From the NCBI GenBank assembly GCA_000165345.1, contig CM000433.1, positions 416,001 to 480,000 on the forward strand: a stretch of DNA of 64,000 nt, read 5' to 3'. Both the position numbers and the translations under genes were made by a program. Positions 51,230 through 56,062 of this stretch are shown in pieces. The notes beneath the pieces are model-generated. The model had not been told where the DNA came from and ran no database searches. It saw nothing but the letters and a program-made list of their open reading frames with translations. Within the stretch, counting starts at the first letter, position 1. Each line of letters begins with the position of its first letter.

Positions 51230-54200
51230 TCAATTAGGTGCTTCTTTTTTTATTGGAATCGGAGGGCTTTTCTTTATAGGAGCAGGAGCAGTAGGAGCGT
51301 CTTTTTTCATAGGCGGCGCAGATGGTAAATCTTTTTTCATTGGTGGAGAAGTTGGTGCACCCTTTTTCATTGTTGGAGATAATGGAGCATCCTTTTTCGC
51401 AGGCGGTATAGCTGGGGCATCCTTAGCTGGAGAATCTGGAGCAGCTGGGGCATCTTTCTTCATTGGAGGTGCAGCAGGAGCGTCCTTCTTCATTGGTGGT
51501 ACAGCGGGAGCATCTTTTTTGGCTGGTGGAGGAGCTGGGGCATCCTTTGCTGGAGATTCTGGAGCTGGTGGAGCATCCTTCTTCATTGGAGGTGCAGCAG
51601 GAGCATCCTTCTTCATTGGAGGTGCAGCAGGAGCGTCCTTCTTCATTGGTGGTGCAGCAGGAGCGTCTTTTTTTGCCGGAGGAGCAGCTGGGATATCCTT
51701 TGCTGGAGATTCTGGAGGGACTGGAGCATCTTTCTTCATTGGAGGTGCAGCAGGAGCGTCCTTCTTCATTGGTGGAGGAGCTGGAGCGTCTTTTTTGGCT
51801 GGTGGAGAAGCAGGAGCATCCTTTGCTGGAGGAGCTGGGGCATCCTTCTTAGCTGGAGGGGCAACAGGAGCATCCTTTGCTGGAGGAGCTGGGGCATCCT
51901 TCTTAGCTGGAGGTGCAGCAGGAGCATCCTTCTTCATCGGTGGTGCAGCGGGAGCATCCTTTGCTGGAGATTCTGGAGCTGGGGCATCCTTCTTAGCTGG
52001 AGGTGCAGCAGGAGCGTCTTTTTTAGCTGGCGGAGCAGCTGGGGCATCCTTCTTAGCTGGAGGTGCAGCAGGAGCGTCTTTTTTAGCTGGCGGAGCAGCT
52101 GGGGTATCCTTCTTAGCTGGAGGTGCAGCAGGAGCGTCTTTTTTAGCTGGTGGAGCAGCAGGAGCATCTTTCTTAGCTGGTGGAGCAGCAGGAGCAGCCG
52201 GGGCATCTTTCTTCATTGGTGGAGCAGCAGGAGCGTCTTTTTTAGCTAACGGAGAAGCTGGGGCATCCTTTGCTGGAGATTCTGGAGCTGGCGGAGCATC
52301 TTTCTTCACTGGTGGAGCGGCAGGAGCGTCTTTTTTAGCTGGCGGAGCAGCAGGGGCATCCTTCTTAGCTGGAGGTGCAGCAGGAGCGTCTTTTTTAGCT
52401 GGTGGAGCAGCAGGAGCATCTTTCTTAGCTGGAGGAGCAGCAGGAGCAGCAGGAGCATCCTTCTTAGCTGGAGGAGCAGCAGGAACAGCTGGGGCATCCT
52501 TCTTCATTGGTGGAGCAGCAGGAGCATCTTTCTTAGCTGGAGGAGCAGTAGGAACAGCTGGGGCATCTTTCTTTAGTGGAGCGGTAGGAGCATCCTTTTT
52601 AGCCGGAGGAGCAGCTGGGGCATCCTTTGCTGGAGATTCTGGAGCTGGTGGAGCATCTTTCTTCATTGGAGGTGAAGCAGGAGCGTCCTTCTTCACTGGT
52701 GGAGCAGCAGGAACAGCCGGGGCATCCTTCTTAGCTGGAAGTGCAGCAGGAGCGTCTTTCTTCATTGGTGGTGCAGCGGGAGCGTCTTTTTTAGCTGGTG
52801 GTGGAACTGGGGCATCCTTTTTAGCTGGAGATTCTGGGGCTGGCGGGGCATCCTTTGCTGGAGGTGCAGCAGGAGCATCCTTCTTCATTGGAGGTGCAGC
52901 AGGAACGTCCTTCTTCATCGGTGGTGCAGCGGGAGCATCCTTCTTAGCTGGCGGAGCAGTAGGAACAGCCGGAGCATCTTTCTTCATTGGAGGCGCAGCA
53001 GGAGCATCCTTTTTAGCCGGAGGAGCAGCTGGGGCATCCTTCTTAGCTGGAGGTGCAGTAGGAACAGCTGGGGCATCCTTTTTAGCTGGCGGAGCAGCAG
53101 GAGCAGCAGGAGCATCCTTCTTTAGTGGTGCGGCAGGAGCAGCTGGGGCATCCTTTTTAGCTGGCGGAGCAGCAGGAGCAGCAGGAGCATCCTTCTTAGC
53201 TGGCGGAGCAGCAGGAGCAGCAGGAGCATCCTTCTTAGCTGGAGGAGTAGCAGGAACAGCTGGGGCATCCTTCTTCATTGGTGGAGCAGCAGGAGCATCT
53301 TTCTTAGCTGGAGGAGCAGCAGGAGTAGCAGGAGTAGCAGGAGCATCCTTCTTAGCTGGAGGAGTAGCAGGAACAGCTGGGGCATCCTTCTTCATTGGTG
53401 GAGCAGCAGGAGCATCTTTCTTAGCTGGAGGAGCAGTAGGAACAGCTGGGGCATCTTTCTTTAGTGGAGCGGTAGGAGCATCCTTCTTAGCCGGAGGAGC
53501 AGCTGGGGCATCCTTTGCTGGAGATTCTGGAGCTGGTGGAGCACCTTTCTTCATTGGAGGTGCAGCAGGAGCGTCCTTCTTCATCGGTGGTGCAGCGGGA
53601 GCATCCTTTGCTGGAGGAGTTGGGGCATCCTTCTTTAGTGGAGCAGCAGGAGCATCCTTCTTAGCTGGAGGAGCAGCGGGAGCATCCTTTTTAGCTGGTG
53701 GGGCAACAGGAGCAGCTGGGGCATCCTTCTTTAGAGGAGCAGCTGGGGCATCCTTCTTAGCTGGAGGAGCAGCAGGAGCAGCTGGGGCATCCTTTTTAGC
53801 TGGCGGAGCAGCAGGAGCAGCAGGAGCATCCTTCTTTAGCGGAGCAGCTGGGGCATCCTTCTTAGCTGGAGGAGCAGCAGGAGCAGCTGGGGCATCCTTC
53901 TTTAGTGGTGCGGCAGGAGCAGCTGGGGCATCCTTTTTAGCTGGCGGAGCAGCAGGAGCAGCAGGAGCATCCTTCTTTAGCGGAGCAGCAGGGGCATCCT
54001 TCTTAGCTGGAGGAGCAGCAGGAGCAGCTGGGGCATCCTTTTTAGCTGGAGGAGCAGCAGGAGCAGCTGGGGCATCCTTTTTAGCTGGAGGAGCAGCAGG
54101 AGCAGCAGGAGCATCCTTCTTTAGCGGAGCAGCAGGGGCATCCTTCTTAGCTGGAGGAGCAGCAGGAGCAGCAGGAGCAGCAGGGGCATCCTTTTTAGCT

Positions 54201-56062: not shown

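Follow-up and report, generated by a model that had tools for sequence, protein, structure and literature searches.

A repeat-tailed Cryptosporidium protein whose unit changes between species while the size and charge of the tail persist

What is a protein for when most of it is a degenerate array of short repeats rich in proline, alanine and lysine, and is such a reading frame a gene in the first place? The question is raised by the minus strand of the 64-kb stretch of Cryptosporidium parvum IOWA-ATCC chromosome 5 analysed here (the window), in which a single open reading frame (ORF), cgd5_2180, encodes 1610 amino acids (aa). Cryptosporidium ranks among the foremost causes of death from diarrhoea in children, and a large part of its proteome has no annotation. 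The gene itself is not a new find: it is already annotated ("uncharacterized protein"), public expression data exist for it, and its repetitive nature was noted in 2015. The present analysis adds a genus-wide comparison, in which the repeat unit changes while the size and charge of the tail persist, together with the absence of detectable homologues outside Cryptosporidium and a corrected gene model for C. ryanae. The gene and its parts are as follows.

51230..56062, minus strand: complete coding sequence of cgd5_2180 including the stop codon (51230-51232); ORF call, 1610 aa, ATG start
55763..56062, minus strand: N-terminal ~100 aa, hydrophilic and predicted to be disordered (predicted local distance difference test, pLDDT, 34-46), with the short motifs RRSTESL and YRQSSVPP containing invariant residues
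55811..55852, minus strand: cysteine motif CFKxG...LSSC (C71, C84), from cross-species alignment
55313..55762, minus strand: helical core, aa 101-250, with predicted helices 102-189, 193-211 and 217-249, from AlphaFold2 (AF2), the ratio of nonsynonymous to synonymous substitution (dN/dS) and alignment
55613-55759, minus strand: heptad coiled-coil segment, aa 102-150, from a heptad register test
54680..55312, minus strand: Ser-rich low-complexity linker, aa 251-461 (27.5% Ser, 12.8% Lys)
54878..54934, minus strand: short conserved helix motif FIENIEKPIGEVKEMVESV, aa 377-395, within the linker, from orthologues and AF2
51233..54679, minus strand: repeat array, aa 462-1610, from unit segmentation, Tandem Repeats Finder and composition
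51233..51277, minus strand: conserved C-terminal end IKKSPPIPIKKEAPN, from orthologue comparison

The product has a computed mass of 162 kDa, a pI of 9.8 and a net charge of +100. A first-pass annotation, made from the letters of the stretch, had described a coiled-coil head, a Ser-rich linker and a long repeat array, and this tripartite anatomy is borne out, with a non-repetitive head and linker (aa 1-461) followed by an array of 1149 aa that makes up 71% of the protein. Units were delimited by anchoring on the runs of lysine, which yields 107 of them, close to the roughly 110 first proposed, in 48 distinct sequences. Most are 10 aa (38 units), 9 aa (27), 13 aa (27) or 12 aa (8) long, with few others, and the most frequent are KKDAPAAPAAPPA (16 copies), KKDAPAAPPA (13), KKDAPAAPPM (13) and KKDAPAAPL (10). 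Four residues account for 90% of the composition (A 33.9%, P 29.7%, K 17.7%, D 9.0%) and Glu for 0.8%; the net charge of the array is +91, and KK pairs recur about every 10 residues. At the DNA level the arrays called by Tandem Repeats Finder, which overlap one another, cover 51333-54679 and have periods of 27, 30, 39, 66, 93 and 105 bp. Exact DNA repeats reach 120 bp at most, and no 150-mer occurs twice. The N-terminal half of the array alternates 9-aa (LKKDAPAAP) with 13-aa (AAPPAKKDAPAAP) units, giving the periods of 66 and 105 bp, and the C-terminal half consists chiefly of 10-aa PPA/PPM units with ESPAKDAPAAP interspersed every few units, which suggests two sub-arrays with separate expansion histories. 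No second tandem array with a score of at least 120 was found in positions 1-51000 of the window.

The array is also an island of high G+C content (GC). Among 1-kb windows, the three that lie fully within the array have a GC of 0.50-0.58 and the edge window 0.46, and values outside the array are about 0.22-0.39, in general near 0.30. GC at third codon positions (GC3) is 0.25 in the array and 0.27 in the rest of the gene; since the two are equal, the island stems entirely from the first and second positions of the Ala and Pro (GCN/CCN) codons, as the first-pass annotation had supposed.

Structurally, the array is predicted to be featureless. In an AF2 model of aa 381-661 the 200 array residues covered carry neither helix nor strand (pLDDT 45-55), and the only helices are two short ones, at FIENIEKPIGEVKEMVESV (pLDDT about 70) and at about aa 445-452. 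Low complexity together with the lack of predicted secondary structure, for which AF2 serves as a proxy, places the array in the class of disordered tandem repeats. The C-terminal end IKKSPPIPIKKEAPN is shared without change by C. parvum, C. hominis and C. meleagridis; in C. ubiquitum this position reads VKKSPPIPIKKEAPN, and in C. xiaoi the end is reduced to PIKKSPPALK.

The loci of further species were recovered by using the syntenic endonuclease gene as a handle. All of the recovered species have the head, the Ser-rich linker and a long Pro/Lys-rich array, and the unit of the array differs as follows.

C. parvum, C. hominis, C. meleagridis, C. tyzzeri, C. felis: PPAKKDAPAAP types
C. ubiquitum: PPMKKDAP / PLPKKEAPAAP / IKEAPAVP
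C. xiaoi: compound unit of ~38 aa, KKEAPVAPPVKKAAPVIPPAKDDSSTAAKAKEAQPDPSI
C. ryanae: related PPAKD/PPIKKAAPAAKD
C. serpentis (gastric clade): P/K/T unit of ~40 aa, PKTAPLSPKTTPLKSKVDTEVHEDNPEI

Complete tails measure 1054-1218 aa in four species of the intestinal clade and 864 aa in C. serpentis. Across the genus they contain 16-29% Pro and 14-18% Lys, and their net charge lies between +0.04 per residue, the value of the P/K/T tail of C. serpentis, and +0.08, that of C. parvum. In C. parvum, C. hominis and C. meleagridis the arrays comprise 96-107 units with a net charge of +85 to +91. Whole units are gained and lost as the array turns over, and the sequence of the unit drifts between species, while tail length, richness in Pro and Lys, and positive charge persist.

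Length varies within species as well. Seven gene calls from five species are free of gaps and range from 1499 to 1724 aa: C. parvum IOWA-ATCC (1610 aa) and GCA_048859185.1 (1598 aa), C. hominis TU502 (1588 aa) and GCA_045269125.1 (1499 aa), C. meleagridis (1533 aa), C. ubiquitum (1672 aa) and C. xiaoi (1724 aa). The two C. parvum alleles differ by six indels (39, 18, 105, 42, 39 and 9 nt), all of them multiples of 3, and by five substitutions. The length polymorphism expected by the first-pass annotation is thus real in both C. parvum and C. hominis, and the locus is polymorphic as a typing marker, but a degenerate array of 3.4 kb can be read by long reads only.

The most constrained part of the protein is the head. 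AF2, run on the cross-species head alignment, predicts a long helix with a pLDDT of 94-97 for aa 110-150, and in the heptad register of aa 102-150 the a and d positions are LIVMF in 50% of cases versus 6% elsewhere, a value that 0.6% of shuffles reach. The head accordingly falls into the coiled-coil class, which is a structural class and not a homologous family, and the predicted succession of N-terminal coiled coil and Ser-rich linker holds. Its invariant core spans about aa 70-225 and includes CFKxG...LSSC, QETVRRYRDxYSQLRQLFEKLKEQNxILQ, CLDACVH and QRIYLLExKLDxSI. The values of dN/dS for aa 101-250, 0.05 against C. hominis and 0.20 against C. meleagridis, point to purifying selection on the head; those of the Ser-rich linker are 0.25-0.49. 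Within the first of the core motifs, the alignment of C. parvum, C. hominis, C. ryanae and C. andersoni shows no variation at C71, F72, K73, L81, S82, S83 and C84, and C. ubiquitum, C. felis, C. xiaoi and C. serpentis have these residues too; C71 and C84 are a candidate acylation or metal site. The CLDAC cysteines, C172 and C176 (~55535-55549), are likewise invariant throughout the genus and lie one helical turn apart; taken together, the four could be acylation, metal-binding or disulfide sites. A signal peptide was not found (mean hydropathy of the first 30 aa, -1.3), nor was a transmembrane (TM) segment (maximum 19-aa hydropathy window, 0.62, versus a TM threshold of about 1.6) or a hydrophobic C-terminus, the protein ending in the hydrophilic ...IKKEAPN. 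The product is predicted not to be secreted by the classical route.

How far does this architecture extend beyond the species compared? When a profile of the head was run with HMMER on 1.84 billion representative proteins, the only matches were three Cryptosporidium clusters. The whole protein has no match to any Pfam family at E<=0.01, the linker none even at E<=10, and three 200-aa pieces of the array none in Pfam-A at E<=10, in agreement with the initial impression that no characterised family has this unit. As judged from these searches, cgd5_2180 is restricted to the genus Cryptosporidium. The description of the gene as lineage-specific therefore applies to the genus and not to the species, orthologues being present in C. 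ubiquitum, C. felis, C. xiaoi, C. ryanae and C. serpentis. Two candidate relatives of the head were considered and set aside: a flagellar cap protein, the best match of a profile search of PDB sequences (E=0.012), is weak coiled-coil noise, and vimentin, from a Foldseek search of the head model against PDB, has a best E of 1.8, from which no family can be inferred. A 300-aa segment of the array matched nothing at E<=0.001 in a collection of 5.8 billion proteins, the Cryptosporidium orthologues included; because composition correction kills such queries, this search is uninformative on similar repeats elsewhere.

The comparison also bears on individual gene models and on the history of the array. 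In C. ryanae the frame stays open for 707 codons from the ATG to the end of the contig and runs into the PPAKD/PPIKKAAPAAKD array (8001-10122 of GCA_009792415.2 VHLK02000021.1, frame 0). The annotated model FG386_002773 (459 aa, with an intron) is probably wrong, its C-terminus resulting from a frame shift. The helix motif FIENIEKPIGEVKEMVESV is present in one copy per orthologue, at aa 355-379, in all species of the intestinal clade, where it precedes the K/P/A array. In C. serpentis the sole match to the motif follows the P/K/T array, 189 aa from the C-terminus (locus 4440-9660). The search pattern was drawn up post hoc, with knowledge of the C. serpentis sequence, and the observation comes from one gastric genome with a 167-nt gap of Ns; we regard independent expansions of the array on opposite sides of the motif as a lead only.

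Turning to whether this is a gene at all, the minus-strand frame is open from ATG to stop in the five complete loci tested, and to the end of the contig in C. ryanae and C. andersoni, and the remaining two sense frames contain 62-107 stops. The minus strand is taken as coding because the head is conserved and in frame. On the other strand lies a second long reading frame.

51519..54941, plus strand: antisense ORF of 1140 aa ('GAAGASFLAGG', TTG start), inside the minus-strand gene

In each of the five loci this frame stays open only where it crosses the array (1125-1236 codons), and 20-22 stops interrupt it elsewhere in the gene; as had been suggested at the outset, the ORF is a shadow cast by the composition of the array and not a gene. 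Variation at wobble positions was dropped as a test of strand, since by coordinate arithmetic the third codon position of the shadow ORF coincides with that of the sense frame.

The equation of the minus-strand gene with cgd5_2180 is based on the gene order in the supplements of Tandel 2019 (PMC6877471), where the sequence cgd5_2130/2140/2150/2160/2180/2190/2200, with cgd5_2130 labelled RCC1, cgd5_2140 CCHC, cgd5_2150 ZIP, cgd5_2160 EF-hand and cgd5_2180 uncharacterized, matches the Pfam content of the window and its order. The neighbouring genes are exact matches to C. parvum proteins, and the non-repetitive head is 98% identical to a partial hypothetical protein of C. hominis. The locus is identical in the long-read IOWA-ATCC assembly (GCA_015245375.1 CP044418.1), where the gene call also has 1610 aa. 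The exact 1610-aa sequence is absent from the protein collection searched, which we read as a gap in the index and not as evidence against the gene. In the literature, cgd5_2180 was cited in 2015 as an example of a gene with 'large repetitive sequences', the reads of which form unmapped contigs (Guo 2015, PMC4407392), and beyond that paper it is unmentioned in the main texts of the searchable literature.

Short-read assemblies and automated gene models are known to go wrong at this locus. Logan short-read contigs break off after about 498 aa of the gene, and the protein of C. hominis UKH1 stops at 582 aa and is labelled 'partial'. Gaps of N interrupt the gene in the assemblies of C. tyzzeri and C. 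serpentis, and the contigs of C. felis, C. ryanae and C. andersoni terminate within it, all in keeping with the early warning that short reads would fail at the array. Baptista 2022 (PMC8744675) describes an uncharacterized protein of Chr 5, CPATCC_0023030, as 'full of tandem repeats', with an Illumina pile-up and good RNA-seq support. Its identity with cgd5_2180 could not be confirmed: the identifiers in that paper are out of chromosome order (gp60 is CPATCC_0012540), no paper was found to convert them, and the GenBank tags near the locus, CPATCC_002222-002229, if anything suggest a different gene. Were CPATCC_0023030 this gene, the pile-up would raise the question of a slight compression of the array in the present assembly.

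The gene is strongly transcribed. Its mean log2 counts per million rise from 9.29 in sorted asexual stages to 10.75 in females in vitro and 12.67 in females in vivo, with log fold changes of +1.47 for female versus asexual and +1.92 for in vivo versus in vitro, and the tab 'Expressed in all 3' of the top-500 genes includes it (asexual, in-vitro female and in-vivo female; PMC6877471). In the comparison with sporozoites it is on the tab 'SporoVSinvivo-Female', which holds the genes raised in in-vivo females, and not on the sporozoite or shared tabs; its companions there include actin, myosin light chain, kinesin, articulin, doublecortin/p25alpha, MORN and IQ proteins (PMC6877471). Mis-assembly and lack of expression, two ways in which the first-pass annotation had foreseen that it might fail, have both been answered, the former by the reproduction of the array in independent chromosome-level assemblies and the latter, at the RNA level, by the top-500 transcript. 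That cgd5_2180 is real, coding and transcribed is, in our judgement, almost certain.

What, then, would such a tail do? The interpretation that we favour, with a fair measure of confidence, is that the tail is an extended, disordered, cationic spacer, tether or multivalent binder, for which the coiled-coil head serves as an anchor. Because bulk properties persist while the units turn over, selection would act on the physics of the tail as a whole (its length, stiffness and charge) and not on its specific sequence. The head would self-associate or anchor the protein; the tail would project from it as an extended, flexible chain rich in polyproline-II conformation, with a contour length of up to about 350 nm at 0.31 nm per residue by our own calculation, and would act as a spacer, a tether, an entropic brush or a multivalent weak binder of polyanions. 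As to the cellular context, we can offer two guesses. The first choice, which we hold tentatively, is the cortical cytoskeleton or pellicle of forming zoites, because the gene is listed together with cytoskeletal genes in in-vivo females, and because the invariant cysteine motif is a possible acylation site. Sporogony proceeds in in-vivo females. The second, a context of RNA or chromatin, appears to us distinctly less probable.

Several considerations weigh against this interpretation. The conservation of length rests on seven complete sequences, in some of which the accuracy of the array is unverifiable, and C. hominis alone differs by 89 aa. Indels in multiples of 3 are to be expected from units of 27, 30 and 39 bp, and are hence a weak sign of selection. 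The low pLDDT of a single-sequence AF2 run is a mere proxy for disorder, and multi-mapping can inflate RNA-seq counts over repeats. The link to the cytoskeleton depends solely on co-listing in one differential-expression tab, and cgd5_2180 is unmentioned in the supplements of PMC6617391, PMC12368253 and PMC10034466.

A bolder version would make the tail a genus-specific molecular ruler or tether with a length under stabilising selection, perhaps built twice from different units flanking the helix motif. It would hold a constant distance, a few hundred nanometres at most, within some structure that is peculiar to Cryptosporidium and belongs to the zoite or zygote as it forms. Total protein length is about 1500-1740 aa in the intestinal species and in C. 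serpentis alike; even so, we regard this version as a long shot.

Among the alternatives, the one that fares best is that the protein is a polyanion binder of the nucleus or of RNA granules, with the KK array binding DNA or RNA in the manner of a linker-histone tail or a condensate scaffold, for example in the stored maternal messenger ribonucleoproteins of females. The net charge and the regular spacing of the KK pairs would suit such a role, as would the rise of the transcript in females over asexual stages (PMC6877471) and the lack of a signal peptide, which would leave the product in the cytosol or the nucleus. However, each unit contains an Asp, so that charge density is low in C. parvum (+0.08 per residue) and lower still in the P/K/T-rich tail of C. 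serpentis (+0.04), no linker-histone or other nucleic-acid-binding domain emerges from the Pfam scans, and the gene is high in asexual stages as well (PMC6877471). On balance we consider this alternative unlikely.

Less plausible still, and in our view improbable, is that the head alone is functional and that the array is a tolerated, near-neutral, low-complexity expansion produced by replication slippage and unequal recombination. The free variation of the unit between species, the differences in length within them (12 aa in C. parvum, 89 aa in C. hominis) and the confinement of strong purifying selection to the head are what such an origin would predict. It accounts poorly for the retention of Pro/Lys-rich tails of about 860-1220 aa in five species with complete tails, the deeply diverged gastric clade included, for the steady total length of about 1500-1740 aa, and for a composition and charge that are kept despite the change of unit; moreover, a 3.4-kb array would be costly in a top-500 transcript of one of the most compact eukaryotic genomes.

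Fast-evolving tandem-repeat proteins of apicomplexans are often antigens, and the units presumably resemble the Pro/Ala-rich low-complexity sequence of the antigen Cp23, both of which could suggest a secreted or surface antigen, immune decoy or adhesin. The product lacks a signal peptide, a TM segment and a hydrophobic C-terminus, Guo 2015 is the only main text in the searchable literature to mention the gene, and expression is constitutive instead of confined to invasive stages (PMC6877471), so that we give this idea very little credence. That the ORF is an artefact of assembly, or arose by chance in a GC-rich satellite that codes for nothing, can be dismissed for practical purposes: short-read assemblies do break at the array, and the Illumina pile-up of Baptista 2022 (PMC8744675) lies over an unnamed tandem-repeat gene of Chr 5 that might be, although this is unconfirmed, cgd5_2180, but an uninterrupted in-frame array of similar size is fused to the conserved head in independent assemblies of five species, all of its 150-mers are unique, and the gene is highly transcribed (PMC6877471).

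The protein merits attention on several grounds. In all the stages sampled its transcript ranks within the top 500, its distribution is limited to the genus, and sequence comparison detects no human homologue. If the tail is indeed a length-selected spacer or tether in the cortex or in another genus-specific structure, it would offer a tractable case in which selection acts on the bulk physics of a disordered protein, the exchange of units between species serving as a natural experiment, and it would be a structural component specific to the parasite. Trypsin would yield few, highly repeated peptides, and quantification by mass spectrometry is expected to be easy; the predicted tryptic peptides are DAPAAPPAK, DAPAAPAAPPAK, DAPAAPPMK and DAPAAPLK, each at about 10-16 per molecule.

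The gene stands in a conserved setting, beside a neighbour that is transcribed away from it.

56063..56757, no strand assigned: divergent intergenic region shared with cgd5_2190, between the members of a head-to-head gene pair
56758-58176, plus strand: cgd5_2190, Nuc1p/EndoG-like endonuclease (Pfam Endonuclease_NS)

The same head-to-head pair is present in C. hominis, C. meleagridis, C. tyzzeri, C. ubiquitum and C. felis, and also in C. xiaoi, C. ryanae, C. andersoni and C. serpentis, so that the arrangement is conserved in every Cryptosporidium species examined. In Tandel 2019 (PMC6877471), cgd5_2190 belongs to a co-expression cluster with values in nine columns, about 8.6 in the first three and 6.9 in the last three; the columns are probably sporozoite, 24 h and 48 h. 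With cgd5_2190 falling across these columns and cgd5_2180 rising in females, the common intergenic region would drive opposite patterns. Elsewhere in the window, Pfam scans of the other ORFs identify Nipped-B/PHD (27937-33348), F-BAR (33901-35946), chromo/RCC1 (40052-43291), ZIP (46634-47695) and RRM (59146-60948) domains, and no Pfam match in 43862-45580; additional long ORFs of the minus strand are at 20753-27124 (2123 aa), 35994-36905 and 38733-39536.

Which known systems does this protein resemble? Alveolin repeats are rich in Val, Glu and Pro (EKIVEVP type), and alveolins are found across alveolates. Like the tail of cgd5_2180, the alveolins and articulins, which are abundant proteins of the inner membrane complex and subpellicular network of the zoite cortex, have short, Pro-containing repeats; cgd5_2180 itself has no match to the Pfam IMCp model, and its head is confined to Cryptosporidium. 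Articulin genes are in the same expression lists as cgd5_2180 (PMC6877471). With the tails of linker histone H1, those of the tail-only kinetoplastid H1 included, the tail shares its richness in Ala, Pro and Lys, its predicted disorder and its net cationic character. The resemblance, to which the first-pass annotation had drawn attention, proves weak: the tail has only 17.7% Lys, one Asp per unit and a net charge of no more than +0.08 per residue, it is about ten times longer, and cgd5_2180 has no Pfam match to the Linker_histone (winged-helix) globular domain. H1 tails are far more basic. The mycobacterial heparin-binding haemagglutinin (HBHA) combines an N-terminal, oligomerising coiled coil with a C-terminal Lys/Ala/Pro repeat that binds a polyanion, a two-part design that cgd5_2180 may share without homology; as a bacterial protein HBHA is exposed at the surface, the repeats span about 40 aa, and their unit has no acidic residue.

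Two further systems come closer in their physical design. In the projection domains of the microtubule-associated proteins (MAPs) MAP2, tau and MAP4, and in the KKE repeats of MAP1B, a charged, disordered repeat arm on a small binding module spaces a cytoskeletal polymer, a likeness already drawn by the first-pass annotation; cgd5_2180 differs in that neither the whole protein nor its linker or array matches a Tubulin-binding or MAP model in Pfam, and that its anchor would be a genus-specific coiled coil. The PEVK region of titin is an unfolded entropic spring rich in polyproline-II. Like the tail of cgd5_2180, it is a long, Pro/Ala/Lys-rich array of short degenerate repeats, even to the literal string 'PPAK'. 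There is no sequence relationship between the two, the Pfam PPAK model failing on the array pieces even at E<=10; the units measure 9-13 aa compared with about 28 aa in titin, the array is nearly devoid of Glu and Val, and cgd5_2180 lacks the flanking Ig/Fn3 domains of titin and belongs to an organism without muscle. We nevertheless infer that titin PEVK is the best analogy for the physical behaviour of the tail, and the likenesses to titin and to the MAPs may indicate how the tail works rather than the family to which it belongs.

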